In this document: piece by piece, positions 1,888-63,661 of the stretch
Position numbering within the stretch: the first letter of the stretch is position 1
Layout of the letters: each line of letters opens with the position of its first letter
Source: a virus
Taxonomy: Duplodnaviria > Caudoviricetes
IMG/VR virus record: IMGVR_UViG_3300048851_000168
Span: 1 to 63,661 of that record
Length of the DNA: 63,661 nt
Strand: one strand, 5' to 3'
The notes under the pieces: model-generated
Told to the model about the DNA's origin: nothing
Database searches by the model: none
The model's input: the letters and a program-made list of their open reading frames with translations, nothing else
Translations under genes and position numbers: made by a program

Positions 1888-2423
1888 GATTCACCTCGAT
1901 CTGCCGCGGCAGTTGCTGCGCCGGCTTTCAGCGCCTTCAATGCCTGGGCATGGCCGGCGTACGCGTTCACGGGCTGGCCGTCGCCGGACAGCCGCTCGTG
2001 GCATAGGAAGGCGTCGAAAGTGCCCTGGCACCAGGTGACGTCGCTGGTCGTTGGCTCGCACTGGTTGGCCGGCGTGCCGAGGCGGTAAGCGCAACCTGCG
2101 CACAAGCCTTTCCCGCTGACGGAATTGGCCAAGCGAACCCCTGCGATGGCGCCAAATATGGTTGGCATGTTGATCTTCTCGGCGGTGTAGGGGTGAACGC
2201 CGCCGTCGGTGACGAGCAGATCCTCGGCCATCACTCGGCAGTTTTCCGCCACCGAGTTGGCGAGCCCCATAAATTGCACCATCAACTGCAGCAGCGCTTG
2301 CGCTCCCTGTGCGTGCAGAAAGCGCAACAGCATGGCTTGACGCTCTCCCGATGGCATCAGGGCGGCGATACCGAGAGTTTCCGCCTGTGCGTCGGTTAAC
2401 GAATAGGATGCCTTGTCGCTCAT
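1875..2423 (-). CDS. Hypothetical phage protein (CxxC)
   Basis: Overlap-coupled to neighbours; CAGCAYR motif. Confidence 0.65.
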
Positions 2424-10705: not shown

Positions 10706-13245
10706 GCTGCCTGCTCCGTCTCGAAGTCAAACATGGTCGGCATGCTCTGATCGCGCGCCGCTGCGGCGCAGTAGGCCGCTCCATCAAGGAAGTATGTGGG
10801 GGAAAGCTCGCAGCCGCGACCTTGGCGCCCTAGCCGTACGGCGCAATACGGGACCGTCATGAGGCCGCCGAAAGGGTCGTAGACGACTTCATTGGGCATG
10901 CTGTATTGCTCGATGGCGCGATCGACAATGTCCAGCGGCAGCGGGCAAAGGTGCTGCTCTTTTCCCTTGACGGCCTGTGCGGTGTTCAACGTCCGCATCC
11001 GGACGACGTCGGTGAGCACGTCGGGGTGCCACGATTGGGGCTGCAGCAGCATGAACGTGGTCGGCAGCCAGCCGGATTTGTCGACCGCCTCGGCGATCTT
11101 CACATCGTGACGGAAGTCGTAGACATTCTCTAGGCTATGCCGCTTGAACATTTGGAAGATGGCAGCCTGATCCAGACCTTCCAGCTCCTCCGGCTTCAAA
11201 TGCCGATCGCCGCCTGATCGGGCGAAGCCGTGGGCGTCGAACTGCCAGCGCGGGCGCGTGTAGTTCCGTTTGTCTTTCACCACTGGAATATCGGCGTAGC
11301 CGTTGCTGCGATCGCTTGGTGGCTTGCGAAAGACCAGCAGGTATTCCGGCATGCCGGCGCCCATACGAGAACCGTCCTTGCATTGCTCGGTCCAGCCGAG
11401 GCGGTACGTCTGGCTGTTCTCCCGGACCACGTCCGTGACAATCGTCTTCCTGGCCAGGAACGCGAAGCCGTGCTTGGTGAATGCTGCCACGCATTCGTCG
11501 CTGAAAGGCTGCACGGTCTGGAAGCCGAAACCATTGATACCGCCAGGCGTTATCCGGTCCTTTACGTGGATAGCAGCCACCCGGCCAGGCTGCAGCACGC
11601 GCAGCAGCTCAGGGATAAGAAAGTCCATCTGGCGCCAGAAATGCGCGTTGTCGTCCGTATGCCCGAAATCGTTGTAGGACGGGCTGTACTCGTACTGCGT
11701 GCTGAACGGGATGCTGGTGACCATTAGGTGAATGCTATCGGCGTCCATTCGGCGCGTCTCATCTACGCAGTCGTTGTTCACGACCACGTACCCGGGGCCG
11801 GAGGCCTCGACGCGATCCACGCCAAGGGACCTGGTCAGTTTGCTCGCCATGGCGGCGTGCGCCAGACCGAACTCTCGAATGATGCCGCTCATCTTCTCCG
11901 CCTGCTGGTTGTGCTGCGCCCACTTGCGCTCGAGCTGGCGCCGGATGTCGCGCTCGGCCTCGGTGTAGATCAGGTCGATACGCACGGAATGCTGCTGGCC
12001 GAACCGCTGGATGCGGTGAACCGCCTGAATGAAGTCCCGGAACTTGAAGCCGATGCCCAGGAAGACGGCATGGTGGCAGTGGCGCTGGAAGTTGCAGCCT
12101 GCGCCGGCAATCACCGGCTTGGCGGCCAGTTCGGGGAACTTGCCATCGCTGAAGTCGATGATGGCCTGCTCACGAACGTCCAGGTCCTGGGAGCCGTAGA
12201 CGGTTACCACGCCCGGCACGGACGCCTCGATTGCGTGCCGTTCTGCCTCCAGGTCGTGCCAGATCAGGCGGTGTGCGGGCGCTGTCTCCGCGCGGATCTC
12301 CTGCAGGATGTCGATGCGTGCCGGCAGGCTTTCGCGCTTTTCCTTCGCTGCGTCGACCACACCGATTGCTGCGCTTCGGAACAGGCGCGCTTGGCCGTCC
12401 TTCTCGTTGCCTGCGTCGGCATGGTTAGACGGAACCTCATGCCAGCGCAGGTCCAGCTCGGGCAGCCGATACCCTTCATCGCTGAATCCCAGGTCGCTGG
12501 GGCGCTGAACAAAGAGGGCCCAACTGGCAACCCATATCCAGAATTCTTCTTCCTTGTGCGGGTGCAGCGTCAGCTGGTCGGCCTTCTCGATATTGCGCTT
12601 GAAGAAGCGCGTCTTCGCCGCGGCCACGTCCATAATTCCCAGGTATGCGGAATAGGCGAGCAACTCGATGTAGTCATTGGGGGAAGGGGTAGCCGTGGCG
12701 ACGAACCGGTACCGGATTCCTTCCGTGCGCACTCCGGCTCGGCGATCGTCGCCGGCGAACAGCTTCATGAACTCTCGGAACGTCTTGCTGCCGCCGAAGC
12801 CGCGCAGCACGTCTGCCTCGTCCAGGCTGGTCGCGTCGAAGGCACGTGGATCCAGCTTGCCGTCCCGGATGGTCTCGTAGTTGGTCAGGTACACGCCGGT
12901 CGGCTCAGCCTCCTCGACCCGGCGGATGAACCGCGGGGGCTCCGACCAGCCCAGTCGCTCCACCGCATCGCGCCGGAACTCCTGGCGGACGCCCAGCGGG
13001 ATGGTGATGAGCCCACGGCCGCCGGCATGCTCGCTGGCCAAGCGCACGGCCTCCAGCTGGATGACGGTCTTGTGCAGGCCAAAACTGGCGAAGAGCGCGC
13101 GCCGGCCTCCGGCCAGCAGCCAGGGCACGATGGCGCGGCAGTGCGGTTTCATGCGCGGATTGATCGCCTCCTGGTCAACCTCAAAGCCGAGGGATGGCGC
13201 GGCCGCGACCTTTGCGCGCAAGAACTCAAGGTATGCATCGGTCAT
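10702..13245 (-). CDS. SNF2-like helicase / N4-N6 DNA methyltransferase fusion
   Basis: FGLHKT, TNYE, LDEA, TATP, QAVHRIQRFGQ (helicase); TSIPF, HLCPL, YDPFGG (beta-class MTase). Confidence 0.88.
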   Translation of the reverse strand: MTDAYLEFLRAKVAAAPSLGFEVDQEAINPRMKPHCRAIVPWLLAGGRRALFASFGLHKTVIQLEAVRLASEHAGGRGLITIPLGVRQEFRRDAVERLGWSEPPRFIRRVEEAEPTGVYLTNYETIRDGKLDPRAFDATSLDEADVLRGFGGSKTFREFMKLFAGDDRRAGVRTEGIRYRFVATATPSPNDYIELLAYSAYLGIMDVAAAKTRFFKRNIEKADQLTLHPHKEEEFWIWVASWALFVQRPSDLGFSDEGYRLPELDLRWHEVPSNHADAGNEKDGQARLFRSAAIGVVDAAKEKRESLPARIDILQEIRAETAPAHRLIWHDLEAERHAIEASVPGVVTVYGSQDLDVREQAIIDFSDGKFPELAAKPVIAGAGCNFQRHCHHAVFLGIGFKFRDFIQAVHRIQRFGQQHSVRIDLIYTEAERDIRRQLERKWAQHNQQAEKMSGIIREFGLAHAAMASKLTRSLGVDRVEASGPGYVVVNNDCVDETRRMDADSIHLMVTSIPFSTQYEYSPSYNDFGHTDDNAHFWRQMDFLIPELLRVLQPGRVAAIHVKDRITPGGINGFGFQTVQPFSDECVAAFTKHGFAFLARKTIVTDVVRENSQTYRLGWTEQCKDGSRMGAGMPEYLLVFRKPPSDRSNGYADIPVVKDKRNYTRPRWQFDAHGFARSGGDRHLKPEELEGLDQAAIFQMFKRHSLENVYDFRHDVKIAEAVDKSGWLPTTFMLLQPQSWHPDVLTDVVRMRTLNTAQAVKGKEQHLCPLPLDIVDRAIEQYSMPNEVVYDPFGGLMTVPYCAVRLGRQGRGCELSPTYFLDGAAYCAAAARDQSMPTMFDFETEQAA

Positions 13246-14481: not shown

Positions 14482-14766
14482 TCATCCAGGATCCTTTGGC
14501 AGCTCGTCGGTGGCATGGCCAGGACAGCCACCCTCGGGGCCGTAGTCGAATCCCGTGCAACTGGCGTAGCTGCACGGGTTGCCACATGTCGTGGACATGG
14601 GGATAACTTCGTGGCCTTTGACCAGCTCGTCCATTAGGGCATCGTCGGCTTCGTCGGCGGTCATCGTGCGGCCGTCGTCGTGCTTGAACATCCCGCGCTT
14701 CTCGCGCTTCGTCATGTTGCGCAGGGCGCCACGGACGTTTAGGCACATATACATGGTTTTGCTCAT
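14482..14766 (-). CDS. Hypothetical phage protein
   Basis: ATGA-coupled; C..FDY..GCPGH end. Confidence 0.7.
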   Translation of the reverse strand: MSKTMYMCLNVRGALRNMTKREKRGMFKHDDGRTMTADEADDALMDELVKGHEVIPMSTTCGNPCSYASCTGFDYGPEGGCPGHATDELPKDPG

Positions 14767-16664
14767 GCTGCAATCCTTCGCTGCTTGGCTTCTTTGGGCG
14801 TCCACGTGGCCAATTCCGGCACGTTGGCCCGCACCAGCGCCGCGGCGAGCGGCGGGCATACGCTGTTGCCGCACATGCGCACCTGGGCATGCTTCGGCAA
14901 GCGGCGTCCATTGACGGTGGGGGCGATCACGTAGGTCGCCGGGAATCCCTGGGCGGCATACAGTTCGTGCGGCTCGAGCATCCGCATGCCGATATCAGCG
15001 ATGACGTACTCCTGTCCGGACACCGTCACCAGCCCGAGCCGGTCCTTCGTGGGAATGGTGTGCATCGGGTCCCGGCAATCCTGGTCCTGGCCGCCTTCGC
15101 CGTAGTACTTCACCAAGAAGGTCCGGACGTCGGCTACGTGGCCACCACCGGCGGTGAGCGTTGGCATCGGCTCGTCGGTCGCTTGGCCGAACTGGTTATT
15201 GCGCGGCTTTGCCAAGCGGGACGTGACAATGCAGGTATCAGCCTTGGCGGTCAACGTCTGCGCCGGCTCGCCGGCATCGCGAGGACGGCTTTGTCCAGCG
15301 CGGCCGCCGCAGCCCACCAGTTGCGCCGCAACCAGCGCATGGTGGTCAACCGTCGTTGCGGTATGGGCAGGGCCGTCCAGCGGGGCGCCGGGCCCGTCAT
15401 AGTTGCCGCCGTAGTGCTTCGCCAGAAAGGCCGAAACGAGTGCGTGCTTCACGCCGCCCGCCACGGCGGTACCAAGCGGCTTATCGAGGCCTGGAGCCCG
15501 CGGCGCTTGGCCCGGAGCCTCACCGTAGCCGGTCTGGACGAGCGTCGGCGCGACCATGGCGAAGTGGCCGCCCTTGACCTCGGCACACTGGGTACGCAGG
15601 GGCGCATCGGCGTCGAAGTTTCGCTGCGTCGACCCGTTGGCGTGCTCGGTCAGGAATGGCGCCACCACGGCATATGCGCTGTTCGCCGTCACGGTTTGGA
15701 AAGGCGCGTCGATATCGCGCGCGCCGGGGCCCCAACGCTGCGCCTTCCCAGGCTGACCTTCGCCGTGCGACAAGGTGACCACAAAGGGCTTCGCCGCCTC
15801 GACCACGTACCGCCGAATGCCACGCGCGATGCGCTTCAGCGTGGCTTCGGCGAGCGGCCGCGTACGCTCGAAGATGGACGGGCAGGGGATGGTCCAGTCA
15901 ATGCAATCCGCCGCGGTACGCCACGGCTTAAGCGTACCGACCAAGACGCCGGACGACGTCGGTACCCCGTGCGTCGGTTCCGGCCAGACGATCGGCTGCC
16001 CATCGCATCGACCGACGCCGAAAAGCCGCTTTCGAATTGTCGGAACGCCGTAATCGCATGCGCGGAGCTCCCGGTGTTCGAAGGTGTATTGCAAACCCTT
16101 GATCAGCCGCTGGCGCTGAGCTTCGGTAAGTTCCAGGACCTCAGTTGCCTCAACGAGAGCCGGGCTGTCCGGGTCGACGCCCGTGGTCAGCATTGCGACG
16201 AACGCATTAAACGTCTCGCCGCGGCGATCCTTGCAGGGCAACATGGCCTCCGTCAGAGGTCCCCATGTTCTGAACTCTTCGACGTTCTCCAAGATGAAAA
16301 CGCGCGGACGTGCTGTAAGCAGCCAGCGGATAATGATCCAGGCAAGGCCGCGTATCTTTTTGCTGACCGGTTTCCCGCCTTTCGCTTTGCTGAAATGCTT
16401 GCAGTCGGGTGAGAACCACGCCAGCCCCACCGGGCGCCCCTGCGTCGCCTGCATTGGATCTACATCCCACACGGACTCGCAGAAGTGCTGCGTTTGGGGA
16501 TGATTCATCTCGTGCATCGCCACGGCTTCAGGGTCGTGATTGATCGCGATGTCGACGCAGCGGCCCAGGGCCATTTCGATGCCGGTCGATGCGCCGCCAC
16601 CGCCCGCAAAGTTATCTACGATGATTTCGTGATGGACGTCTAGGAGGAACTGATCACGGATCAT
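14763..16664 (-). CDS. C5 DNA cytosine methyltransferase
   Basis: DNFAGGGG, SPDC, ENV, RKRLF, GNSV. Confidence 0.93.
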   Translation of the reverse strand: MIRDQFLLDVHHEIIVDNFAGGGGASTGIEMALGRCVDIAINHDPEAVAMHEMNHPQTQHFCESVWDVDPMQATQGRPVGLAWFSPDCKHFSKAKGGKPVSKKIRGLAWIIIRWLLTARPRVFILENVEEFRTWGPLTEAMLPCKDRRGETFNAFVAMLTTGVDPDSPALVEATEVLELTEAQRQRLIKGLQYTFEHRELRACDYGVPTIRKRLFGVGRCDGQPIVWPEPTHGVPTSSGVLVGTLKPWRTAADCIDWTIPCPSIFERTRPLAEATLKRIARGIRRYVVEAAKPFVVTLSHGEGQPGKAQRWGPGARDIDAPFQTVTANSAYAVVAPFLTEHANGSTQRNFDADAPLRTQCAEVKGGHFAMVAPTLVQTGYGEAPGQAPRAPGLDKPLGTAVAGGVKHALVSAFLAKHYGGNYDGPGAPLDGPAHTATTVDHHALVAAQLVGCGGRAGQSRPRDAGEPAQTLTAKADTCIVTSRLAKPRNNQFGQATDEPMPTLTAGGGHVADVRTFLVKYYGEGGQDQDCRDPMHTIPTKDRLGLVTVSGQEYVIADIGMRMLEPHELYAAQGFPATYVIAPTVNGRRLPKHAQVRMCGNSVCPPLAAALVRANVPELATWTPKEAKQRRIAA

Positions 16665-36413: not shown

Positions 36414-37031
36414 ATGACCGATCCAAAGAAGCCAGCTCCGGACTGGGAGCGCATCGAAGCGGATTACCGTGCCGGGTTGCTGTCGGTTCGGGAAATTGCC
36501 GCTGCGCAAAGCATTTCCCATACCGCTATCCAGAAGCGCGCCAAGGCACAGGGATGGGAGCGAGACCTTACTGCCCGGATCAAGGCCAAGGCGGATTCCC
36601 TGGTTGCCAAACGGGAGGTTGCCAGCCAAGTTGCCACGGAACACCGGGCGGCAACCGACGCGGTGATCGTCGAGGCGAATGCTGAGGTTATCGCCCGTAT
36701 CCGCCTAGCGCACCGTAGCGATATCGCCAAGTCTCGGCGACTTGCCATGTCGTTGCTGGAAGAGCTGGAAGTGGAAACCGGCAACCTGGAACTGTTCGAG
36801 CAGCTGGGTGAAATGCTGCGGTCCGAGGACAAGAGCGGGGCCGACAGGCGCAACGATCTGTACCGCAAGGTCATATCGAGCGCGGGCCGCGTGGACAGCA
36901 TGAAGAAGCTGGCCGAGACCCTGAAGACTTTGGTGGGCCTGGAACGCGAAGCATACGGACTGGCTGTTGACCAGGGCGGCGAGCCGGGCGCCGTGCCCAC
37001 GGGGTTGTCACACTTCTATGGAGAGTCATAA
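36414..37031 (+). CDS. terS: Terminase small subunit
   Basis: PDWERIEADYRAGLLSVREIA..W.RDL; overlaps terL. Confidence 0.85.
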   Translation: MTDPKKPAPDWERIEADYRAGLLSVREIAAAQSISHTAIQKRAKAQGWERDLTARIKAKADSLVAKREVASQVATEHRAATDAVIVEANAEVIARIRLAHRSDIAKSRRLAMSLLEELEVETGNLELFEQLGEMLRSEDKSGADRRNDLYRKVISSAGRVDSMKKLAETLKTLVGLEREAYGLAVDQGGEPGAVPTGLSHFYGES

Positions 37032-38415
37032 GCCAACCCTAAACCCAGCATTGCGGGAATTCTGGGCCGCGCCGGCGCGCAACCGGGTGTTGTACGGGGG
37101 CCGAGCCTCCACGAAGTCATGGGACGCCGCAGGGTTTGCGACTTTCCTGGCCAGCAACTACAAGCTCCGGATCCTGTGTGTACGCCAGTTCCAGAACAAG
37201 ATCGAAGAATCGGTCTACACGCTGCTGAAGAACCAAATCGAGCGGTTTGGCCTGAATCCTAGGTTCCGGATACTGGAAAACAAGATCGTCGGCCGGGACA
37301 CCGGCACCGAGTTCATGTTCTATGGGCTGTGGCGTTCCATTGACGAGATCAAGTCGCTGGAGGCTATAGACATCCTCTGGATTGAGGAAGGCCACAACCT
37401 GACCGAGGATCAATGGAAGATCCTGGAGGCGACCATTCGTAAACAGGGGTCGCAGATCTGGATCATCTTCAATCCTCGGCTCGCTACGGACTTCGTATAC
37501 AAGCGTTTCGTGCTGAATCCTCCGCCCGACACCATCAAGCGGCTGATCAATTACACCGAGAACCCGTTCCTCTCGGACACGATGCGCAAGGTTATCGAAG
37601 CCGCCCGCGCCGAGGATGAGGACGAATACCGCCATATCTACCTGGGCGAGCCGAAGCAGGATGACGAAAGCTCGATCATTAAGCGGTCGTGGATCATGGC
37701 TTCCATCGACGCCCACAAGGCGCTTGGATTTGCCGCTGAAGGTCGAAAGCGCCTGGGCTTCGATATCGCCGACTCCGGCATCGATAAATGCGCGAACGTC
37801 TACTCGCATGGTTCCGTCGTGTTGTGGACCGACCTGTGGAAGGCCGGGGAAGATGAGCTGCTTATGTCATGCACCCGGACTTACCTCGCGGCACGCGACC
37901 GTGGCGCGCACATCACCTACGACTCGATTGGCGTGGGCGCTACCGCTGGCGCGAAGTTCGCTGAATTGAACGCCGCACGGCACGGGGTGAGCCCCGTCGT
38001 CTATGCCAAGTTCAATGCTGGGGGCGCCGTCTTTCGACCGGAAGCAGAATACAAACCGGGCACGAAGAACAAGGACATGTTCTCCAACATCAAGGCGCAG
38101 GCCTGGTGGCTGTTGGCGGACCGTTTCCGCAACACTTACAACGCGGTGCGCAAGGGCGAGAAATTCCCCGTCGACGAGATGATCAGCCTGTCGAGCGATC
38201 TACCCAACATTGAGCTGCTCATTGAAGAACTTGCCACCCCCAAGAAAGACTACGACCAGAACGGTCGAGTGAAGGTCGAAAGCAAGAAGGACCTGGCCAA
38301 GCCGAACCGTGAGGGTGGCCCGGTGCCATCTCCGAACCTGGCTGACGCGATAGTTATGGCGTACGCGCCGGCGCCCGCACCAATGCAAATTTCCGATGAA
38401 GCCCTTGCTGGCTGA
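37018..38415 (+). CDS. terL: Terminase large subunit, PBSX family
   Basis: YGGRASTKS, WIEEG, FNP, GFDIAD, SPNLADA. Confidence 0.93.
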   Translation: MESHKPTLNPALREFWAAPARNRVLYGGRASTKSWDAAGFATFLASNYKLRILCVRQFQNKIEESVYTLLKNQIERFGLNPRFRILENKIVGRDTGTEFMFYGLWRSIDEIKSLEAIDILWIEEGHNLTEDQWKILEATIRKQGSQIWIIFNPRLATDFVYKRFVLNPPPDTIKRLINYTENPFLSDTMRKVIEAARAEDEDEYRHIYLGEPKQDDESSIIKRSWIMASIDAHKALGFAAEGRKRLGFDIADSGIDKCANVYSHGSVVLWTDLWKAGEDELLMSCTRTYLAARDRGAHITYDSIGVGATAGAKFAELNAARHGVSPVVYAKFNAGGAVFRPEAEYKPGTKNKDMFSNIKAQAWWLLADRFRNTYNAVRKGEKFPVDEMISLSSDLPNIELLIEELATPKKDYDQNGRVKVESKKDLAKPNREGGPVPSPNLADAIVMAYAPAPAPMQISDEALAG

Positions 38416-38427
38416 TACCCGTATCCA

Positions 38428-39981
38428 ATGATCAATCTCAAATTCTGGCGTAAGGCAGCGCCGGCGGTCGGTGCTGCGCCTGCCGTGCCGGATACACCAG
38501 GTGCCACCAAGATTGGCGGGATGAAGATCAGCGATGTGGCCGTCTTGACTGTCCCGGGGGCTGAAATACCTCGCGGAGTAGCATTCAAGGCGCCTGACGT
38601 GCCGCCGGGGGTGATCCCGGCACAGGCTAAGTTGGCCTGCGACTCGGCGATGACGCAGAACTATGCGTTTGCTGTCCAGGGAGCGTATAGCGAAGGCCTG
38701 GAGTTCATGGGCTATGCATACCTATCGGAACTGACCCAGCGGCCGGAATACCGGCGTCCAGCCGAGATCCTGGCCAAGGAAATGACTCGGGAGTGGATCA
38801 AGCTGCAGGCGATTGGCGACGATCCGACGGGCGCGATCGCCGAAAAGCTGCGCAAGATCGAGGCGGAGATGAAGCGCCTGGGCGTCCAGGCTGCGTTCCA
38901 GAAGGCGGCGGAACAGGATGGGTACTTCGGACGCTCGCAGATTTATCTAGATACCGGCAGCACCGATGATCTTGAAGAACTTAAGATTCCACTGTCCGAG
39001 ACGGCTGAAAAGATCGGCATCGGGATGCTGAAGGCCATCACGGTCATCGAGCCGATCTGGACCTATCCGAATGCCTACAACAGCACGGATCCGCTGAAGC
39101 ATGACTTCTTCCGTCCTCAGAACTGGTTCGTCATGGGGAAGGAAGTTCACGCAAGCCGTTTGCTGACGTTCGTGAGCCGGCCGGTACCGGACATGCTGAA
39201 GCCTTCCTATGCATTCGGCGGCCTCAGCCTTTCCCAGATCTCCAAGCCGTACGTGGACAACTGGCTGCGGACGCGCCAGAGTGTCTCGGACCTGATCAGC
39301 AACTTCAGCGTCATGGGGGTCAAGACGGACCTTTCAACGGTCCTGAATGGCGGCGGCTCCGAGATGATGAACAAGCGAGCCCAACTGTTCAACCAGACGC
39401 GGAACAACCGCGGCTTGATGATGTTGAACAAGGATACAGAGGAGTTCTTTAATGTCTCGGCACCTCTCGCCAGCCTGGACAAACTGCAGGCGCAGTCTCA
39501 AGAGCATATGGCGGCGGTCGACGGAATCCCGCTGGTGATCCTTCTGGGCATCACGCCGACCGGCTTGAACGCCTCCAGTGAAGGCGAATTGGAAACGTTC
39601 TATGCCTGGACCAAGGCGCAGCAGGAAGCACTTTTCACGCCCCAGCTATCCAAGCTGATCAATGTGATTCAACTGTCCCTGTTCGGGGAGATCGATCCCG
39701 CAATCGGGTTCAAGTACATGCCGCTGTGGACGCTGAGCGAAGTTGAACAGGCGACCGCCCGGAAGACCGAAGCAGATACGGACATTGCCTACATCGGTGC
39801 GGGCGTCATCACGCCGGACGAGTCGCGGGCCAGACTGGCTGGCCAAGAAGACGGACCATATTCGTCCCTGGATCTCTCCGAGGAATTACCGGAAGTCCCC
39901 GAGCCGGAAAGTGGACCGTTGCGACACGCCGAAGAGGTCAGCGGGCAACAGGAAGAGGAAGACGAGGCGCTTGCGGCCTAG
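38428..39981 (+). CDS. Portal protein (DUF1073)
   Basis: GYAYLSELTQRPEYR, IPLVILLGITPTGLNASSEGE; follows terL. Confidence 0.88.
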   Translation: MINLKFWRKAAPAVGAAPAVPDTPGATKIGGMKISDVAVLTVPGAEIPRGVAFKAPDVPPGVIPAQAKLACDSAMTQNYAFAVQGAYSEGLEFMGYAYLSELTQRPEYRRPAEILAKEMTREWIKLQAIGDDPTGAIAEKLRKIEAEMKRLGVQAAFQKAAEQDGYFGRSQIYLDTGSTDDLEELKIPLSETAEKIGIGMLKAITVIEPIWTYPNAYNSTDPLKHDFFRPQNWFVMGKEVHASRLLTFVSRPVPDMLKPSYAFGGLSLSQISKPYVDNWLRTRQSVSDLISNFSVMGVKTDLSTVLNGGGSEMMNKRAQLFNQTRNNRGLMMLNKDTEEFFNVSAPLASLDKLQAQSQEHMAAVDGIPLVILLGITPTGLNASSEGELETFYAWTKAQQEALFTPQLSKLINVIQLSLFGEIDPAIGFKYMPLWTLSEVEQATARKTEADTDIAYIGAGVITPDESRARLAGQEDGPYSSLDLSEELPEVPEPESGPLRHAEEVSGQQEEEDEALAA

Positions 39982-40226
39982 CCGTACTTGATGGCGTCGA
40001 TGCGCGCGATCATGGCGGCCAGCTCGAAGCGAAGGGCATCGAAACGCGGTTTTCCGTCAGCGGACGTCGCGCCATCCTTCAACTTGAACATGTCCAGCTC
40101 GGTATCGAGCAGATCGGATAGGTTGAAGCGTGCGGCATATTCGTCATTCTGGCCGACGTAGACGACCACGCGCTGAAATTCCTCGTGGTCATAGCCGACA
40201 TAATCGACGGCGATGTCCTGTTTCAT
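39978..40226 (-). CDS. Small acidic antisense moron protein
   Basis: AAGGA RBS; stop overlaps the portal stop. Confidence 0.65.
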   Translation of the reverse strand: MKQDIAVDYVGYDHEEFQRVVVYVGQNDEYAARFNLSDLLDTELDMFKLKDGATSADGKPRFDALRFELAAMIARIDAIKYG

Positions 40227-40244
40227 GATTCTGGTGTCCTTCTG

Positions 40245-41114
40245 ATGGGTTTGCGCATGGCCACCGATGCACTGAAGAATGCTAGCCCGGATCGCAGCCT
40301 GGTGTCCCCGACCGGAAAAGAGATCCACGTGCGGCCGGTGCGTCCGAATGCCGGCGTTCAGGCCCAGTACCGGAAGCAGCTCGATCAGATGATCGACGCG
40401 ATGCAGAAATCCCTGGTGTGGTGGCTTTCGGCCCAGTATAGGGCGAATTCCCCGACGCTCGCGGAGGATGCCGGCAAGGAACGGTCGGTCGGCAGCCCGG
40501 CCATGACGTTACGCCGAGCGATGCACCGGCTGACCACTTACTGGCAACGCCGGTTCGACGAGCGCTCGCGCCAGATGGCGCTGAACTTCTCCGACAAGGC
40601 CATGGGGAATGCCGACTTCCAGCTCCGGGAGTCCTTGAAGGCATCCGGGTTTTCGGTGGAATTCAAGATGACGGCGGCGGCCAATGACGTCTACCAGGCC
40701 ACCATCGGGGAGAACGTCGGGCTGATCCGCTCCATCGCCGCGGAGCACCTGCAGGAGGTCGAAGGCCTCGTGATGCGGTCGGTGACGCAGGGACGCAAGT
40801 TGGACGACCTGTCAAAGGACTTGGAGAAGCGCTACCAGGTCACGAAGCGCCGGGCCGCGCTGATCGCCCGTGACCAGAACAACAAGGCCACGGCGACGAT
40901 TACGCGCGTGCGCCAGCAGGGCCTGGGAATTAAGCAGGCGCGTTGGATGCACTCAGCCGGCGGGAAGGAGCCGCGGCAGTCTCATGTGGCGGCCAGCGGC
41001 AAGCTGTACGACGTGGACAAGGGCATGTACATCGACGGCGAGTGGATCCGACCGGGTGAGATGATCAATTGCCGATGCGTGGCGCAGAGCGTGATCCCTG
41101 GATTCGAGGACTGA
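40245..41114 (+). CDS. Minor head protein (SPP1 gp7 / Mu F family)
   Basis: RAALIARDQ..PRQSH..PGEMINCRC. Confidence 0.88.
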   Translation: MGLRMATDALKNASPDRSLVSPTGKEIHVRPVRPNAGVQAQYRKQLDQMIDAMQKSLVWWLSAQYRANSPTLAEDAGKERSVGSPAMTLRRAMHRLTTYWQRRFDERSRQMALNFSDKAMGNADFQLRESLKASGFSVEFKMTAAANDVYQATIGENVGLIRSIAAEHLQEVEGLVMRSVTQGRKLDDLSKDLEKRYQVTKRRAALIARDQNNKATATITRVRQQGLGIKQARWMHSAGGKEPRQSHVAASGKLYDVDKGMYIDGEWIRPGEMINCRCVAQSVIPGFED

Positions 41115-41115
41115 T

Positions 41116-41271
41116 ATGGCGACGGTGAAGATCGGGTTTCGATTCGTCTGGTGGGCTCGTCCGCTGGCCGTGACTGCCATGTATGCGGCGCTGCCCTTCG
41201 TGGGCGTGGAGCGAGCGTTAAGCGCTGGCGTCTGGGTCTTCATGCGCGGCATGCGCATTGTCATCTCGTAG
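41116..41271 (+). CDS. 51-aa hydrophobic protein
   Basis: GAGG RBS; ATG 1 nt after the upstream stop. Confidence 0.5.
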   Translation: MATVKIGFRFVWWARPLAVTAMYAALPFVGVERALSAGVWVFMRGMRIVIS

Positions 41272-41295
41272 AAAGCAGTTCCCGAATAGCCAATA

Positions 41296-41322
41296 GCCCG
41301 CCGCAAGCGGGCATTTTTATTT
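41296..41322 (+). terminator. Intrinsic terminator
   Basis: GCCCGC/GCGGGC stem followed by ATTTTTATTT. Confidence 0.7.
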
Positions 41323-41332
41323 GCACGACGCC

Positions 41333-43204
41333 ATGGCCACTCCGAAAACGCTGTATGTCTGCCGGCCCCTGGCCAACGCGAACGACCTGATCGCATGGGC
41401 GCAGTCCCAGGGATTCGGTAAAACGCTCGACGGCGACGATATACATACGACGCTCGCCTACAGCCGGACGCCTCTGGATTGGGACGCTGCGGGGACCGGC
41501 GCGGACGCGCTGGTCGTTCCAGGCGGGGCAGAGGGGCGGTCGGTCGAGCAGCTCGGCGACAGGGGCGCCATCGTCCTCAAGTTTGGGTCGCCCGACCAGG
41601 CCAATCGCTGGCAGCAGTTCCGGGATGCGGGGGCATCTTGGGATTACGAAGGCTACCAGCCGCACGTGACCATCACCTATGACGCCTCGGGCGTCGACCT
41701 CGCTGCAGTGCAGCCCTACGACGGTCCCCTGAAATTTGGTCCGGAGCGGTACGCCGAAATCGATGACGGGCGCGCGGAAAGGGCGGCGGCAATGGATGCA
41801 GTGCTGATCACCTCCAGCCGCATGGCGTTCGACCGCAGCACCGTCCGTCGGATCGACCAAGACGGACGTCTCCACGTCGACATCAGCAACATCAGTAAGG
41901 CTGCGGTGAACCCCTACCTGGGTTCTGAAATACCGGATTGGGAGGAACTGGGCCTGGACCCGACGAAGGTCTACCAGTTGCTCCGCGATCCAGAGGAACT
42001 GAAGAAGGCCGCGCCGACCTTCAACAACCTGCCGCTGATTGACGCTTACGAACAAACCGGCAAGGAGCACATCCCGGTATCGGCCCTGGATCCCAAGAAA
42101 GAGATCATCTGCGGCAGCTTCGGGACCGATGCGGAATTCGTTTCCCCTTACCTGCGTAACAGCCTCGTTGTCTGGGACGCTACGGCGATCAAGGGAATTC
42201 AGAACGAAACGCGGAAGGAAATTTCCTGCGCCTATTACTACCGGGCGGACATGACGCCCGGCACCTATCAAGGCACCGCCTATCACGGCGTGATGCGTGA
42301 CATTCGTGGCAACCACGGCGCGCTTGTACGCGCTGGCCGCGCTGGCTCCGACGTTGTTGTCGGGGATTCTCAACTGGAGAAAAGCACTATGAGCAAGAAG
42401 CCCCTTTCTCGGAAGGCAGCGTTGGCGAAGGGGGCCTTGCTGGCCCACCGTCCGAAGCTGGCCGCCGATGCAAAGCTCGACCTGAACGCCATCATGGCCG
42501 GCATCACCGCTGCGAACTGGAAGGACAAGAAGAGCGGCATCCTGGCCGCGATCAAGCCCAAGCTCGCTGCCGATGCCGACGTAGGCGGATTGGTGGCGCT
42601 GCTGGACAGCCTGGACAACGCCGACGACAACGTGGGTCTGGATGACGACCAAGCCGACATGATTGATGGCGCCGTTGACGCCGGCCCCATCGAAGACATC
42701 ATCTCCGGCCTGAAAGGCAAGATCAGCGACGAAGACCTGGCGGCGGTCGAAGCCAAGCTCCGTGCGCTGAAGCTGGCGAAGGCAGAGGAAGACCCGCCGG
42801 TCGGTGATGATCCGCCGGCGACCAATGGCACTCCAGCCGCTCCGGCCACGTCCAACACGGACGACGTGGTAAGCAAGCCGGCCATGGACGCCGCAATCCA
42901 GCGCGCGGTCAAGGAGACCGAGAACCGTACCGTCGCGCGCATGCGCGATATCGCGGCCGCACAGGAGTTCGTGCAACCCTGGGTCGGGAAGCTTGCCTTG
43001 GCACAGGACAGCGCTGAAGGCGTCTACCGCGTGGCTCTGGAGACGCTTGGCGTAGACATCAAGGGCGTGCATGCCAGCGCCTATCGGCCCATCCTGCAAG
43101 CCCAGCCCAAGCCCGGCGAAGTGCAGAAGCGCATAGCCCAGGACAGCGCGCAGCCGCAAGGCTTCAGCGATCGTTTCCCGAACGCTTCTGTCCGTCACGT
43201 TTAA
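41333..43204 (+). CDS. Fusion: Acb1-like 2H phosphoesterase + DUF2213 head-maturation domain + scaffold-like C-terminus
   Basis: IHTTLAYSR and YQPHVTITY (two HxT motifs); [32 protein letters not shown] (DUF2213). Confidence 0.85.
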
Positions 43205-43215
43205 GGAGCAACAAA

Positions 43216-44115
43216 ATGGGATTTCCCACTCAAGTCAATGTCGTTCCAGGCGTAGGCGTCGCCGGCGACTTCGCCTCTGCCAACCCCCGCGCTTCCGTGG
43301 TAAACGGTCCCGGCGCGTTCGTGGCCGGCCCGGCCGGCGTAGCCGTCGGCCTCTTCGCCTGGGCGGATGCGGCCAATATCCGCGTCAACAACTTCGGCGG
43401 CGGCAAGCCAACCGGATTCGTCCACCGCGCCCAGCAGGGCCTCATCACTCGCTTCCTGGAAGAATCGTCCATGGTTGTGCCGGCCGGCCTGCCCGTGACG
43501 CTCTTCAGCGCGGGTGACTTCTGGGTCAAGAACGACGGCGCCACCACGTCGGCCATCGGCCAGACCGCGTACGCCGACAATTCGAACGGCAAGGTGCAAT
43601 TCGGCTCCAACTGGACCGGCGCCAGCGTGACCGGCTCCATTGCCGCGAACGTGGTTACCGGCTCCATCGCGGGAACGACGCTGACGGTGACTGCCGCCAC
43701 GACCGGCGTGCTGACCGTCGGCCAGACCATCAGCGGCACCAACGTCACCGCGGGCACCCAGATCGTCGAGATCTTGACCGGTACGGGCGGCGTCGGCACG
43801 TACAAGGTGAGCGTCGGGCAAACGGTGGCCAGCACGACCATCACCGGCTCTGGCGGCACGCTAACCGTCACCGCCGTCGGCTCTGGCTCGCTCGGTCTAG
43901 GCGATGCCCTGAGCGGCTCCGGCATCACCGACGGGACCTACATTACTGGCCTCATCACCGGCGCCGGCGGCACGGGCACCTACGCGGTCAACGTCGGCCA
44001 GACGGCGTCCTCGACCACGGTCACGGTCGCCTCCGGCACGGCAACCAAGTGGGTCGCCCTGTCGGTCGGCGCACCGGGTGATCTGGTCAAGATGTCCACC
44101 TACGTCCTCGGCTAA
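43216..44115 (+). CDS. Head decoration/cement protein with inserted beta repeats
   Basis: [24 protein letters not shown]; directly before the capsid gene. Confidence 0.75.
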
Positions 44116-44132
44116 GCCAAAGGAAGAAAATC

Positions 44133-45203
44133 ATGCAACGCAATCAAGACCTGGCGGTGTTCGAGCGCGAGTGGGGCATCACGTTCCCCGGCTCGATGGC
44201 ATTCACCAAACCGGAATGGAAACAAAACATCCAACTGGCCATGGATGCCCAGCCTTCGCTGGTTACCACGCCGAACAGCGGCATTCCGTCGTTTCTGACG
44301 ACCTTCGTCGATCCGGACATCCTGACCATCTTGACGGCCAAGAACGCGGCCGCCGAGATCTTCGGCGAGGTGCGAAAGGGCGCCTTCGTCGATACGACCG
44401 CGATATTCCCGGTGGTGGAACATACTGGCGAGGTGTCCAGCTACGGGGATTTCTCGGAAAATGGCATGTCGGGTGCGAACTCCAACTTTCCGCAGCGCGA
44501 AGCGTACCTGTACCAGACCATCGTCAATTACGGCGACCTGGAAATGGAACGCGCCGGCCTGGCGAAGATCGGCTGGGCTGCCACGCTCAAGCAATCGGCC
44601 GTCATCAACCTGAACAAGTTCCAGAACCTGACGTACTTCTTGGGCGTTCAGGGCCTCCAGAACTACGGGTTGCTGAATGATCCGGGCCTGTCGGCGCCGA
44701 TCGCTCCGGCGCCTAAAGCTGCTGGTGGCAACAAGTGGATCAATAACGGGGTGATCGTTGCCACGGCCAACGAGGTCTATGCCGATATCCAGAGCCTCTT
44801 CATCCAAGAGGTGGTTCAATCATCGGGCAATATCGACCAGAAGTCGCCCATGACGCTGGCAATGTCGCCTGTCGCCGAAGTAGCCCTGACCGCGACCAAC
44901 CAGTTCAACGTCAACGTCAGCGATCTGCTGAAGAAGAACTTTCCCAACTTGGTGGTCAAGACGGCCGTCCAGTACGGGGCGCTCTCGGCGCAGAACCCGC
45001 AGGGCAATCCCGCTGGCGAACTCGTGCAGCTGATCGCCGACGAAGTGGAAGGTCAGGACACAGGCTACTGCGCGTTCAACGAAAAGCTCCGCGGCGGCGT
45101 GATCGTCCAGAACCTATCCAGCTTCAAACAGAAGATGTCGCAGGGAACGTGGGGCGCCATCGTTCGCCAGCCGTTCGCGATCTCGCAGATGGTGGGCGTC
45201 TAA
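44133..45203 (+). CDS. Major capsid protein (DUF2184-like)
   Basis: N..YFLGVQGLQNYGLLNDP, QKMSQGTWGAIVRQP. Confidence 0.88.
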   Translation: MQRNQDLAVFEREWGITFPGSMAFTKPEWKQNIQLAMDAQPSLVTTPNSGIPSFLTTFVDPDILTILTAKNAAAEIFGEVRKGAFVDTTAIFPVVEHTGEVSSYGDFSENGMSGANSNFPQREAYLYQTIVNYGDLEMERAGLAKIGWAATLKQSAVINLNKFQNLTYFLGVQGLQNYGLLNDPGLSAPIAPAPKAAGGNKWINNGVIVATANEVYADIQSLFIQEVVQSSGNIDQKSPMTLAMSPVAEVALTATNQFNVNVSDLLKKNFPNLVVKTAVQYGALSAQNPQGNPAGELVQLIADEVEGQDTGYCAFNEKLRGGVIVQNLSSFKQKMSQGTWGAIVRQPFAISQMVGV

Positions 45204-45227
45204 CCACGTCAGATCCGCAACATCAGG

Positions 45228-45260
45228 AAATGGCCCGCCTTGCGCGGGCCATTTTTATTT
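45228..45260 (+). terminator. Terminator after the capsid gene
   Basis: AAATGGCCCGC..GCGGGCCATTT followed by T run. Confidence 0.75.
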
Positions 45261-45281
45261 CACAACAGGAAGGAGAATCAC

Positions 45282-45707
45282 ATGCCCGGTACCGTCACAA
45301 TCGCGTGCAAGCTGCCTCATGGGCTCATCTTGCGCGTTTTCGACATGATCGATGGCCAGGAGCCAGTCATGGGCGGTGGCTTTCGCAAGATCAAGGTCGC
45401 CAAGGAGCGCCAGGAGCGCGCCACCATCAAAGGTTGGGCCCATCCGCAGAACCATGCTCCCAAGGCACCGTTGGTGGGCGGATTCGCGCTGACCTCCGGC
45501 GTCGACAAGGATCTGTGGGACGCGTGGCTGGCGCAGAATGGCCAGTCCGACCTGGTCAAGAACGGCCTGATCTTCGCTCACGAGACGGTCGACAGCGTCA
45601 ACGATGAAGCGAAGGAGAAGCGTGCGCTGCGCTCGGGCTTGGAACGCCTCGATCCCGCCAAACTGCCCAAGGGCATCCAAAAGCACGAAACCGTCGAGGA
45701 ACAGTAA
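45282..45707 (+). CDS. Head-associated hypothetical protein
   Basis: AGGAG RBS; [18 protein letters not shown]. Confidence 0.75.
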
Positions 45708-45709
45708 CC

Positions 45710-46165
45710 ATGGAAGGCGTCGTCGTTTTCGACTACGCCGCCTGGGCTCTTCGGTATCCGGAGCTGGCGGCGTCGGTGCCCCAGCCCCTGGCCCAGCAGT
45801 ACTTCAACGAGGCCCAGCTTTACTGTGACAACACCCCGTGCAGCCCGATCCGTGACTGGAAGCCGGGCGGCGAGCGCGCGATGCTGCTCAACATGGTCAC
45901 GGCGCATATCGCAGCGCTGAATGCGCCTATAGGCGGTCAAGGGTCGTCCCCACTGGTGGGGCGCATTAACAGCGCGACCGAGGGTAGTGTTTCCGTGCAG
46001 TCGCAACTCGACATGCCGCCCGGTACCGCGCAATGGTTTGCTCAGACCAAGTTCGGCCTTGCGTTCTGGACTGCGACTGCGCAGTACCGGACCATGCGGT
46101 ACGTCCCGGGCCCGGTGTTTGACCCAGACCCATGGGCGGCTGGATTCGGCTATCGGATTCGCTGA
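45710..46165 (+). CDS. Head-tail adaptor (DUF4054)
   Basis: [25 protein letters not shown]. Confidence 0.82.
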
Positions 46166-58392: not shown

Positions 58393-58574
58393 TGGAAAAT
58401 TATGCACGCGTAGACAAGGGGGTGGTTGTTGAGTTTTTCGATAACACCACCGGGTTGCCAATGTCCGAGCTCTTTCACCCTTCCTTGATCTGGGTTTTGG
58501 TTGGCGACGCCTCGCCGGAGATCGGGTGGCTATGGGACGGAGAGAAATTCACGCCGCCGGTCGCACCAGATTGA
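58392..58574 (+). CDS. Small tail-fibre assembly-like protein
   Basis: TAATG coupling; YARV..VVE..LFHP..IGW.WDG..FTPP. Confidence 0.7.
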   Translation: MENYARVDKGVVVEFFDNTTGLPMSELFHPSLIWVLVGDASPEIGWLWDGEKFTPPVAPD

Positions 58575-59728
58575 GCGACCGTGGCAAACACGACTGAGCA
58601 GAGTCGTTGAACAATCTTGCGCACACTGTCCGTCCTTAGCTCGAATGACCACCAGAAGGCAATGCAACATACATTCGTGATCGCAAGATATGCCATGAGT
58701 CTCATCAAATCATGGCTGTTGTAAGGCTTGTTGATCGCGGTCAGGGGATCAAAGGCGAACAACAGGACAAGAACAGGCAGATGCATCACGTAGAGGGAGT
58801 AACTAAACCCGGCGATGAACTTCGCTGGGCGGCGTAGCCCAAGGGTCGGCAGATTTACGGAAAGAACAATCACACACGCGGTGATAAGTCCCGTCAGAAA
58901 ATCGCGTAGGTACGTGCCAATATCGGGCGCCACAAGATCGGCGCATACCAGCGCTGATGCACCAATAAGCAGCGCGGCGGCGGATGCCGTAGGCGACGGT
59001 CTAATGAAGTAGGCGCCCGCGCCAAGTAGCCAGATGCAGAATCCAAACAAGAAGTACAGCGTCACTATCGGGGAAACCCGGGTCAGTATCAGAACGAATA
59101 TGGCGATCACGGCAAGCGCTAAGCCGCGTTGTTTGGCCGAACCGAACGGCAACAGGGCAAGCGCCGGAAGTAGCGCGTAGTACCAGAATTCGTTAGCCAA
59201 GCTCCACAAGGAAATGTTGGTGCCGTATTGCGGGACAAGGAAGTTGACGACGAAAAAGGCATTGCCCAAAAAGCGGGAAATGCTCCAGGCATCTCCATTG
59301 GCTATCCATCCAGGTAGGAATAGCGATGACCAATTCGATATGACGTACTCGCCGGCTCCCAAACTGACCGAGATGCGATCAAGGATAAAGGTCAGTATCA
59401 GGCAGGGAATGAGCACCGTCCAAAGCCTACTAAGGCGCGCTATGAGGTACTTCGGCCACTCGAAGACTTTGGCGCGCAACGCTTCGATGGCTCTTCCGCC
59501 CACTAAATACCCGCTCAGAACAAAGAAGACGATTACCGCGTCGTGAGACCACTTCGACAGATAGATGATGAGCGAGTGAACGGTCATCGTTATTTTGGAC
59601 TCAGGTCCGGCGTGGTTGCCGAAGAAGAACAGTTGATAAGCGTGGCCCAGTAGAACGGCTTGGGCCGCCCCGCCGCGCAATATATCCAGCCATACAGAAG
59701 TTCTCGGCGAGATCACCCTTGTCGACAT
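58475..59728 (-). CDS. Acyltransferase-3 family membrane O-acyltransferase (moron)
   Basis: LDILRG.AA..V..GH, FFVLSGY, RLSRL, WSLANEFWYY, SYSLY..H; lower GC. Confidence 0.92.
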   Translation of the reverse strand: MSTRVISPRTSVWLDILRGGAAQAVLLGHAYQLFFFGNHAGPESKITMTVHSLIIYLSKWSHDAVIVFFVLSGYLVGGRAIEALRAKVFEWPKYLIARLSRLWTVLIPCLILTFILDRISVSLGAGEYVISNWSSLFLPGWIANGDAWSISRFLGNAFFVVNFLVPQYGTNISLWSLANEFWYYALLPALALLPFGSAKQRGLALAVIAIFVLILTRVSPIVTLYFLFGFCIWLLGAGAYFIRPSPTASAAALLIGASALVCADLVAPDIGTYLRDFLTGLITACVIVLSVNLPTLGLRRPAKFIAGFSYSLYVMHLPVLVLLFAFDPLTAINKPYNSHDLMRLMAYLAITNVCCIAFWWSFELRTDSVRKIVQRLCSVVFATVAQSGATGGVNFSPSHSHPISGEASPTKTQIKEG

Positions 59729-59791
59729 TTCCCCTCCCACTCTTCCAGTAGAACGCGGGGATTGTAGTACTGACCATAGAGCCAACCCCAG

Positions 59792-62672: not shown

Positions 62673-63661
62673 CTAGGCAATGCGTCGGCTCCGCTCGCCT
62701 GTCACCTTCCGCGCCGGCTTATCCTCGCGCACGCCCTGGAAAGACGCCTGCCGAAGGATGCCGCCGTTCGTGATCGTGGTGTAGGCGACTTCCACGACCA
62801 TTTCCGGCCGGACCCAATGCATGACCGGTTTCGAATTGCCGCCCCATCGATCCGACAGCACAGGCCTTTCGGTGAACGGCATTTCATCGGTCGCCAGGGG
62901 CGCCAGGCGCTTCATCAGCATGTCGATCGTCTGCCGCTGTACCCGGTGCCAACCCGGCCGGCATAGCGCAGCTTGGCGCCATCGCGCAGCCCGACGAGCA
63001 GGGCGCCGAAGCCGCTCCTGGATCCACTTGGATTCGTCCACCCGCCGACGACAAACTCCTGCCTGGGCCGGCATTTCAGCTTGATCCAGGTATTGGTCCT
63101 CCCCGCGCGGTACGGCGCATCCAGGCGCTTACCCATCAGACCTTCCAGTTTGCGTTTGCACGCCTCGGCCAGCAGCGCGGCCGCGTGGTCGGCATCGTCG
63201 ACATCCGCGACCACGCTTCGAAGGATGGCGGCGTTATCGGGAATGTCGGCAAGGACGGCCCGCAGCGCCTTGGCGCGCTCGCGCAACGGGTAATCGCGCA
63301 GGTCCTGGTCGTTCCACCAAGGGATGTCGAAGGCGACGAATTGCACCTGCTTGGCCACGCTCTTGTCCATGGCGTTCTGCAGGCGCTGGAAGCTGCTCAC
63401 GCCGAACTCGTCCAGCACCACGATTTCGCCGTCCAGCCAGCCGGTGCCGGCCAGGTCAAGCGCCTCGATTCGCGCCACCAGGTCGGCAAGCTTTGGCGTC
63501 CAGTCCTTCGCCTCACGGCTGAAGAAGCGCGCGCCGGACTCGTCGATTCGACATAGCATCCGGTAGCCGTCGTACTTGAGCTCGTAGGCGTAGCCGCTGG
63601 GCGGCGGTGCGTCTACGAGCGTCGCAAGCGGCGGCTTGATGAATTCGGGGAGGCTGGCCAT
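62673..63661 (-). pseudogene. ligD: ATP-dependent DNA ligase (LigD ligase domain), frameshifted near 62932
   Basis: ELKYDGYR, LDGE, EGLMGK, WIKLK, GRVGTG in one frame; WVRPEMVVEV..LRQASFQGVREDK in another. Confidence 0.85.

Follow-up and report, generated by a model that had tools for sequence, protein, structure and literature searches.

A phage head protein joining an Acb1-family phosphodiesterase domain to DUF2213 as a candidate packaged anti-CBASS factor

The window analysed here, a complete IMG/VR provirus record of 63,661 bases (IMGVR_UViG_3300048851_000168; Caudoviricetes), contains in its head module a gene at 41333..43204 (+ strand; 623 amino acids from ATG 41333) that encodes, in a single frame, an Acb1 domain, a linker, a DUF2213 domain and a scaffold-like tail. 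By sequence, catalytic tetrad and predicted fold, the N-terminal ~150 residues are a true 2H phosphoesterase domain of the Acb1 family, whose members cleave the cyclic nucleotide signals of CBASS, the antiphage signalling system that is based on cyclic oligonucleotides. Comparison with relatives indicates that the N-terminus of DUF2213 proteins is a swappable slot, in which the Acb1 module is one among several alternative heads on one body. We read the product as one three-part head protein (Acb1 enzyme, probable protease and scaffold tail) whose cargo slot carries an enzyme that would be packaged, cut free at the joint and directed against CBASS, and we give this complete reading a slightly better than even chance of being correct.

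The Acb1 domain and its joining to DUF2213

The Acb1-type 2H phosphodiesterase domain spans residues 5–147 (41345..41773, + strand) and matched the Pfam model PF23474 at E = 5.4e-35 (120.7 bits against a cut-off of 27; profile positions 1–141 of 144), and a six-frame search of the record recovered the same interval, 41345-41773, with 124.7 bits and no internal stop. Its two HxT motifs, HTT (H38-T39-T40; 41444..41452, + strand) and HVT (H111-V112-T113; 41663..41671, + strand), lie exactly where the initial annotation had placed them and align with H44/T46 and H113/T115, respectively, of T4 Acb1. The four residues H38, T40, H111 and T113 are invariant in 20/20 fused relatives, an alignment of proteins that all have the Acb1-DUF2213 architecture and whose Acb1 domains are 42–59% identical. 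T4 Acb1 has, besides its tetrad H44/T46/H113/T115, the stacking aromatics Y12, W74, F107 and W147, an adenine contact at E141 and a C-terminal lid (PMC9117128). In the alignment with T4 57B, Y8 falls on Y12 and Y105 on F107, and E142 adjoins the E141 column, in loops whose alignment is uncertain; the fused protein keeps E138/E142 and an aromatic at position 105.

Identity over the domain is ~21% to T4 Acb1 and 24–25% to FBB1 Acb1, and the closest relative of solved structure by sequence is the C-terminal part of the Pam3 portal (8HDS, residues 467–613, E = 4e-20), followed by FBB1 Acb1 (7T26, E = 1e-7). The structural comparison with Acb1 that the initial annotation had proposed gave the same affiliation: an AlphaFold2 model of residues 1–153 (predicted local distance difference test score (pLDDT) 87.4, predicted template modelling score 0.81) was nearest by Foldseek to 7T26 (E = 2.5e-8, template modelling (TM) score 0.68/0.75) and 7T27, then to 9Q2Y, a phosphodiesterase of Burkholderia phage BCSR5 that cleaves cyclic GMP–AMP (cGAMP), and then to LigT. 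Doherty et al. 2025 place 7T26 as well as 9Q2Y in their structural group 3, which is broadly active on the signals of cGAS/DncV-like nucleotidyltransferases. Profile match, tetrad and predicted fold together place the domain in the Acb1 family. The window protein thus shares Pfam family, tetrad register and predicted 2H fold with the known Acb1 enzymes (T4 57B; FBB1, 7T26/7T27), and unlike free T4 Acb1 it carries the enzyme as the N-terminal domain of a 623-residue head protein, with W147 replaced by Arg and W74 aligned with Glu. A plain LigT- or RNA-ligase-associated 2H enzyme was considered and is kept as a low-probability variant of the alternative discussed next, with Acb1 structures outranking LigT and no report of LigT_PEase for this protein.

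It is improbable, in our assessment, that the 2H domain is inactive or serves another substrate, as an RNA-end or 2'-5' oligoadenylate phosphodiesterase, an RNase or an enzyme acting on the cyclic triadenylate (cA3) of CRISPR systems of type III, or that the missing lid Trp has disabled it. Iyer et al. 2017 (PMC5512222) first suggested RNase activity or 2'-5' oligoadenylate degradation for head-fused 2H domains; Doherty et al. 2025 describe group-specific substrate ranges, with two groups inactive on 18 messengers; PHROG 755 bears the name RNA ligase; and just 24–25% of positions are identical to solved Acb1. Moreover, R147 (41771..41773, + strand) stands in the column of the lid Trp of T4 Acb1, so that the lid aromatic is missing, and E72 stands in the column of W74. 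The lid column nevertheless varies among relatives, with W in 14/20 fused proteins and R in 2/20, including the window protein, and a motif search did not see the lid Trp in 25 of 81 related natural proteins (a few being pattern misses and some ending before the lid), which makes Trp loss common in this clade; the cGAMP activity of PDE-9 also tolerates lid deletion (Doherty et al. 2025). Further evidence for an Acb1-type substrate comes from the end-to-end match to an Acb1-specific Pfam model, from the ranking of two cGAMP-cleaving group-3 enzymes ahead of LigT as nearest structures, and from the retention of the tetrad, Y8, the aromatic at 105 and E138/E142.

The DUF2213 domain (residues 172–346; 41846..42370, + strand) was identified by PF09979 (E = 3.5e-43), and phrog_2229, named 'head maturation protease', covers residues 162–618 (E = 3e-123), being one of four PHROGs with that name that match the fusion protein. 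H246, S298 and H328, whose catalytic role is putative, are invariant in 43/43 DUF2213 sequences, and the His-to-Ser spacing is 52 residues versus 55 in T4 gp21 (H85 and S140 according to bioRxiv 10.64898/2026.03.04.709575). A model of residues 154–400 (pLDDT 80) retrieved from the PDB, by Foldseek, the Epstein–Barr virus protease (E = 0.015) and T4 gp21 (E = 0.027–0.044), then the proteases of Kaposi's sarcoma-associated herpesvirus and human cytomegalovirus, all with TM ≤ 0.46. In BFVD, 75 matches reached E ≤ 1e-3, many of them named prohead serine protease, COG3740 head maturation protease or capsid maturation protease, names that are annotations and not tests. Pfam at E ≤ 10 on residues 154–356 returned DUF2213 alone and no protease family, and NCBIfam yielded no match. 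Weak fold matches together with names in databases make an assemblin-like or gp21-like prohead serine protease the probable identity of DUF2213.

The remaining residues 347–623 (42371..43201, + strand) form an Ala/Asp/Lys-rich tail, scaffold-like in composition, with a net charge of -7 over residues 450–530. A profile of the 43 DUF2213 proteins aligned with Pa193 gp24 (9B40 chain G) over chain residues 3–463 (E = 1.4e-15), and phmmer of the fusion protein against gp24 gave E = 1.1e-9. Pa193 gp24 is a DUF2213 protein collinear with residues 171–623 of the window protein, encoded in the same order (portal, ..., gp24, decoration, capsid), and it was seen in mature virions by liquid chromatography–mass spectrometry, its residues 286–326 forming a helix-turn-helix pentamer beneath the five-fold vertex (PMC11456595). 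By eye from the profile alignment, the approximate counterpart of this helix-turn-helix would be residues 452–482 (42686..42778, + strand). Unlike the window protein, gp24 has no N-terminal enzyme domain; it is modelled for residues 286–326 only and is not called a protease in the accessible text of PMC11456595. DUF2213 and tail together are probably a protease-scaffold fusion of a kind common in phage heads. The initial annotation, which had described a T4 gp57B/Acb1-like N-terminus joined in frame to a DUF2213 domain and a scaffold-like tail, is borne out by the two Pfam matches, the tetrad alignment, the predicted fold, the collinearity with gp24 and the charge of the tail.

Exchange at the N-terminus and other partners of the Acb1 clade

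How often DUF2213 carries this domain, a survey also proposed in the initial annotation, was assessed in the best 120 relatives of the whole fusion protein, all with DUF2213. Among them, 21 have Acb1, 26 NUDIX and one PF13822, and for 73 no other Pfam domain is recorded; one protein (P0078) has both Acb1 and NUDIX. An artefactual fusion was ruled out, since 21/120 share the two-domain architecture and the Acb1-DUF2213 fusions include NCBI isolate proteins named Bosea sp. P0002, which at 83% identity is the nearest relative, has neither Acb1 nor NUDIX and begins with MAFDR exactly at M164 of the window protein, and two viral contigs (L005 and L006, 69% identical over the shared part) encode a NUDIX box at the same N-terminal position. 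The occurrence of Acb1, NUDIX or nothing at one position identifies the Acb1 module, at the level of domain architecture, as one alternative head on a shared body.

Some members of the family have additional N-terminal sequence. The NUDIX form of L005 (3521-3650) and an Acb1 form (P0123) share an extra N-terminal peptide with the motif AMEAAAHG...LGIP...VG.EF, and in P0011 and P0019 a Cys/Gly/Trp-rich stretch precedes the enzyme domain. The window protein has neither the AMEAAAHG-type peptide nor the Cys/Gly/Trp-rich stretch.

Elsewhere, the Acb1 clade has mainly other partners. An Acb1-domain match was found in 199 of 50,697 phage records, the best of which (31–47% identity) are the C-terminal ends of annotated portals of Pseudomonas, Rhizobium, Synechococcus and Pseudanabaena phages, the T4-like free 57B genes reaching ~30% identity at most. 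Long proteins of a set of 5.8 billion proteins gave 28 matches, comprising 19 portal fusions of three families (11 PF06381, 5 Mu portal and 3 HK97 portal, 2 of the latter also with MuF), 3 with DUF2213, 2 with no partner on record and one each with ChaB, ART-PolyVal, an ADP-ribosyltransferase exoenzyme and PF02666. An exhaustive HMMER search of 1.84 billion representatives yielded 2,002 clusters at E ≤ 1e-3; among the best 150 of these, 2 are ≤160 residues long, although some short members may be fragments, and 134 are ≥291 residues, up to 3,900, often with the domain internal. In IMG/VR, the sample of 81 loci (the best 80 of 156 confirmed, plus L009) is biased, as a DUF2213 motif was one of the two scan patterns; all 81 carrier open reading frames match Acb1, and 71 are portal fusions (PF06381 62, PF04860 7, Mu portal 2), the others including two each with DUF2213, the XkdF-type protease S78_2 and NUDIX, and two free 155-residue proteins. 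By the partner counts for the 81 loci and the 28 long proteins, fusion to DUF2213 is in the minority within a large class; what unites this class, as far as the domain architectures indicate, is a capsid-internal partner.

Several of these homologues bear annotations that do not mention the domain or that name another function. The Acb1-like C-terminal domain of the Pam3 portal (8HDS chain A, residues 467–613), in which the second motif is H-I-S, is unmentioned in the accessible text of the Pam3 paper (PMC9942802). The phiPSA1 portal has the same Acb1-like domain (L004 5001-5435), with a head maturation protease gene directly downstream. Two free Acb1 homologues, DSS3P8 gp129 (L003 4989-5441) and ZHS_4 (L002 2116-2715), are annotated 'prohead protease', and in RefSeq and PHROG 755 the T4-like 57B genes (L091 5953-6411 = T4 57B) go under the name 'RNA ligase'. 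The likely source of such names is transfer from fused relatives or the relation between 2H and LigT. At the other extreme of size, giant proteins of 1,400–3,900 residues (P0155, P0157, P0169, P0171, P0177 and others) contain an internal Acb1-clade module and are probably polyvalent proteins, and some IMG/VR loci combine portal, MuF, ART, topoisomerase IB, methyltransferase and GNAT domains with Acb1.

Proposed packaging, release at the joint and competing explanations

In the mechanism that we propose, the scaffold tail would bind the inner capsid shell and so bring the whole protein into the procapsid, where the protease would cut Ala-x-Asp sites, among them A153-M154-D155 at the joint, and release an Acb1 enzyme of ~155 residues within the head. 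The enzyme would then degrade the cyclic di- and tri-nucleotide signals of CBASS, either as unassembled late protein in the producing cell, at the moment when CBASS is set off by the protease, or in the next host once ejected there. Consistent with a packaged effector, the enzyme domain is fused to a capsid-internal protein family, the gene lies in the head module and the carrier homologue gp24 is present in virions.

The joint itself has several features that would suit cleavage. The linker (residues 148–171; 41774..41845, + strand) is predicted with pLDDT <50 at residues 148–153 of the first model and residues 1–11 of the second, and it contains A153-M154-D155 (41789..41797, + strand), a candidate protease cut site of which M154 is also a candidate internal start. 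The pattern A-[MLQF]-D occurs 6 times in the fusion protein, compared with an expectation of 1.33 (2 in 1000 shuffles), and is absent from the portal, MuF and cement proteins of the window. The sole A-x-D in the 356-residue capsid protein, A36-M37-D38 (44238-44246, + strand), is a candidate propeptide cut site and aligns with A62-M63-D64 of Pa193 gp26; the near-identical E217 gp25 is visible from residue 66 only, two residues beyond that motif, for which its authors propose cleavage or disorder. At the joint of the NUDIX relative the sequence is IAMD, and A-x-D lies in the linker of 17/20 fused relatives. These motifs are no more than suggestive of a cut at the Ala-x-Asp joint. Were it real, the freed enzyme would measure 155 residues, near the 152 of free T4 Acb1, and its C-terminal lid would be free.

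A number of observations weigh against the packaged, joint-cut reading. Three of the 20 fused relatives lack A-x-D in the linker, and the A-x-D test is partly post hoc, F having joined the motif after inspection of the sequence and the linkers being Ala/Asp-rich. As to the protease, no PDB match to the model of residues 154–400 reached E ≤ 1e-3, and hhalign of the 43-sequence DUF2213 profile against the single T4 gp21 sequence gave a probability of 0.4% (E = 0.16), which is no support. The claim of the initial annotation that a counter-defence enzyme is tied to the protein that may trigger CBASS stands in its first half, the Acb1 domain and the fusion, and is weaker in its second, the protease reading of DUF2213 depending on weak fold matches and names with a negative hhalign result. 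The Pa193 authors call gp24 a putative scaffolding protein and could not decide whether it is cleaved (PMC11456595), and ejection is not an obvious fate for a protein held beneath the vertices of the capsid or on the portal. In the window protein Arg147 takes the place of the lid Trp of T4 Acb1, W74 aligns with Glu72, and ATG 41333 lacks a Shine–Dalgarno-like sequence and lies 11 nt downstream of a terminator-like hairpin. The provirus record has no host flank, which places the host genome, and hence any host CBASS, outside it. Finally, a literature search found no activity, packaging or cleavage data for the fusion protein or fused homologues.

A serious though unlikely alternative is that the fusion serves co-expression only: Acb1 would act in the cytoplasm of the producing cell, the fusion would supply timing and dose (one antidote per potential trigger), entry into the capsid would be incidental and the next host would not be reached. 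It fits late activation of CBASS through prohead protease activity, a trigger that the initial annotation had invoked and that is in print for T4 as a 2026 preprint (bioRxiv 10.64898/2026.03.04.709575). An induced prophage, moreover, has no incoming virion proteins, so that newly made enzyme alone would protect it, and Pa193 gp24 remains bound beneath the vertices (PMC11456595). In the phage records examined, the Acb1 module also adjoins head genes when it stands alone (ZHS) or is fused to a portal just upstream of a protease gene (phiPSA1), which fits accidental merging with either neighbour. However, position in the operon would give equal timing without a fusion, and a low-copy portal is a poor vehicle for dose. 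That the partners are nearly all capsid-internal and come from unrelated families (three portal families, MuF, DUF2213 and the XkdF protease), and that some carriers are giant multi-domain proteins of up to 3,900 residues, argues for localisation rather than timing.

The start of translation bears on whether the Acb1 domain is made at all. The open reading frame is bounded upstream by an in-frame stop at 41294-41296, its earliest in-frame start is TTG 41321, followed by ATG 41333, and its stop is at 43202-43204. We regard it as highly improbable that the N-terminal domain goes untranslated in vivo, in which case translation would begin at 41792 or 41822 and what lies upstream would be a recent remnant, its frame still intact. 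This alternative draws on the lack of a Shine–Dalgarno-like sequence before 41333 and the hairpin 11 nt upstream, on the gaaaggg that precedes ATG 41792 (M154), and on the closest relative, whose protein starts at the position of the M164 ATG (41822..41824, + strand; itself with no upstream Shine–Dalgarno-like sequence). Yet the frame is open with all catalytic residues intact, the same architecture is kept at 42–59% identity in 19 other clusters, and the portal, MuF and terminase genes of the module likewise lack Shine–Dalgarno sequences, whereas aaggag and aaggaag precede the cement and capsid genes, which are high-copy; the NUDIX relative has none before its equivalent internal ATG. The gene may also yield both products, in the manner of nested head genes; an internal start is annotated in T4 gene 21. 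Given the poor context of ATG 41333, the full-length form may be minor, and a low-level long form with a more abundant short form is possible from the sequence signals. The hairpin (41296..41322, + strand; stem-loop 41296-41312 with 6 G-C pairs and a loop of 5, plus a T-rich tail) is the sole + strand terminator-like site in 38000-46000, but it was set aside as evidence, its fold energy being no better than that of shuffled sequences (z -0.42) and the region having no excess of such sites (5 versus 6.7 in the shuffled expectation).

T4 provides a working analogy for the packaged, joint-cut reading. Its internal proteins, such as IPI and Alt, enter the prohead, are freed by the maturation protease and are injected as anti-defence proteins; unlike the fusion described here, they are encoded by separate genes and have a targeting peptide. 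T4 gp21 is among the top fold matches to DUF2213, and T4 acb1 adjoins ipI; on the other hand, T4 Acb1 is itself free, of a size similar to that of the window domain if released at D155, and hhalign shows no profile relation between DUF2213 and gp21. Another parallel is the ICP3 ejectosome protein Gp15, which inhibits the CBASS effector CapV (2025 preprint, bioRxiv 10.1101/2025.07.23.666291) and doubles as virion protein and anti-CBASS factor, as the proposed product would, but it is a stoichiometric effector inhibitor, neither a signal-degrading enzyme nor a fusion.

The idea of packaged head-fused 2H domains is already in print. Fusions of 2H with MuF or portal domains in 'polyvalent' proteins were described by Iyer et al. 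2017 (PMC5512222), who suggested for them a role in degrading the nucleotides of nucleotide-activated defences, and Iyer et al. 2022 considered 2H fusions probably packaged and injected, countering SMODS (CBASS-type), cyclic-mononucleotide and CRISPR signalling; NUDIX fused to a capsid-processing serine peptidase is described in the 2017/2022 work as well. Their effectors share with the window protein an enzyme on a capsid-internal protein and a predicted packaging and injection, the 2H partners named in the accessible parts being MuF and portal and not a protease-scaffold, whereas the partner here is DUF2213. Acb1 was defined as a free T4 protein by Hobbs et al. 2022 (PMC9117128), the main text of which does not contain the words fused, portal or capsid, and Doherty et al. 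2025 list 13 multi-domain 2H phosphodiesterases with extra domains that include 'proteases'. As far as these accessible parts show, the protease-scaffold partner is new and the concept of head-fused 2H and NUDIX domains, with its packaging prediction, is not; the exact architecture may already be in the supplements of Doherty 2025 (Table 2), Hobbs 2022 (273 homologues) or Iyer 2017 (including Figure 5B). Our literature search found no experimental work on head-fused Acb1.

A broader form of the proposal, possible but on balance rather unlikely, is a general exchangeable cargo port: Acb1, NUDIX or both would be carried into the procapsid and freed at an Ala-x-Asp joint shared with the capsid propeptide, each virion would bring tens to hundreds of free anti-signalling enzymes to the next cell, and Acb1 would also silence the CBASS alarm raised by its own protease in the producing cell. 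If active and packaged, Acb1 would be a built-in head component in many temperate phages, beyond the free early protein of T4, and the prediction of anti-CBASS functions from genomes would change, such proteins being recorded at present as 'DUF2213 domain-containing protein' or 'portal protein'. With a prohead protease as the CBASS trigger, the fusion would be a direct test case of an antidote tethered to its trigger, and the slot with its candidate Ala-x-Asp joint suggests a natural route for loading chosen enzymes into capsids.

Genomic neighbourhood

The right arm of the window is a late operon of myovirus type, in which the head module runs in the order terminase, portal, MuF, fusion gene, cement and capsid. 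The large terminase gene (36967-38415) is followed by those for a PF06381 portal (38428..39981, + strand) and a Mu F-like minor head protein (40185..41114, + strand), and the fusion gene is followed by those for a cement or minor capsid protein (43216..44115, + strand), with a strong aaggag Shine–Dalgarno sequence, and the major capsid protein (44133..45203, + strand). Past the capsid gene lie a sheath-like DUF3383 gene and a tape measure gene whose product bears an SLT domain.

The gap between the MuF-like gene and the fusion gene (41116-41322) holds a 51-residue hydrophobic open reading frame at 41116-41271. In the relatives L005 and L007 the corresponding gap holds an opposite-strand open reading frame of 100–111 residues with a signal-peptide-like start (L005 3183-3518, - strand), and the gap looks like a hot spot of small gene insertion.

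Elsewhere in the provirus, an RdgC domain is fused to an FtsK gamma domain (2420-3556), and two large proteins bear methylase domains, one of 847 residues with an N6/N4 DNA methylase domain (10702-13245) and one of 633 residues with a C5 cytosine methylase domain (14763-16664). Past the tail genes, an acyltransferase_3 membrane protein is encoded at 58475-59785, and an ATP-dependent DNA ligase reading frame (62915-63661) reaches the final base of the record with its N-terminal end.

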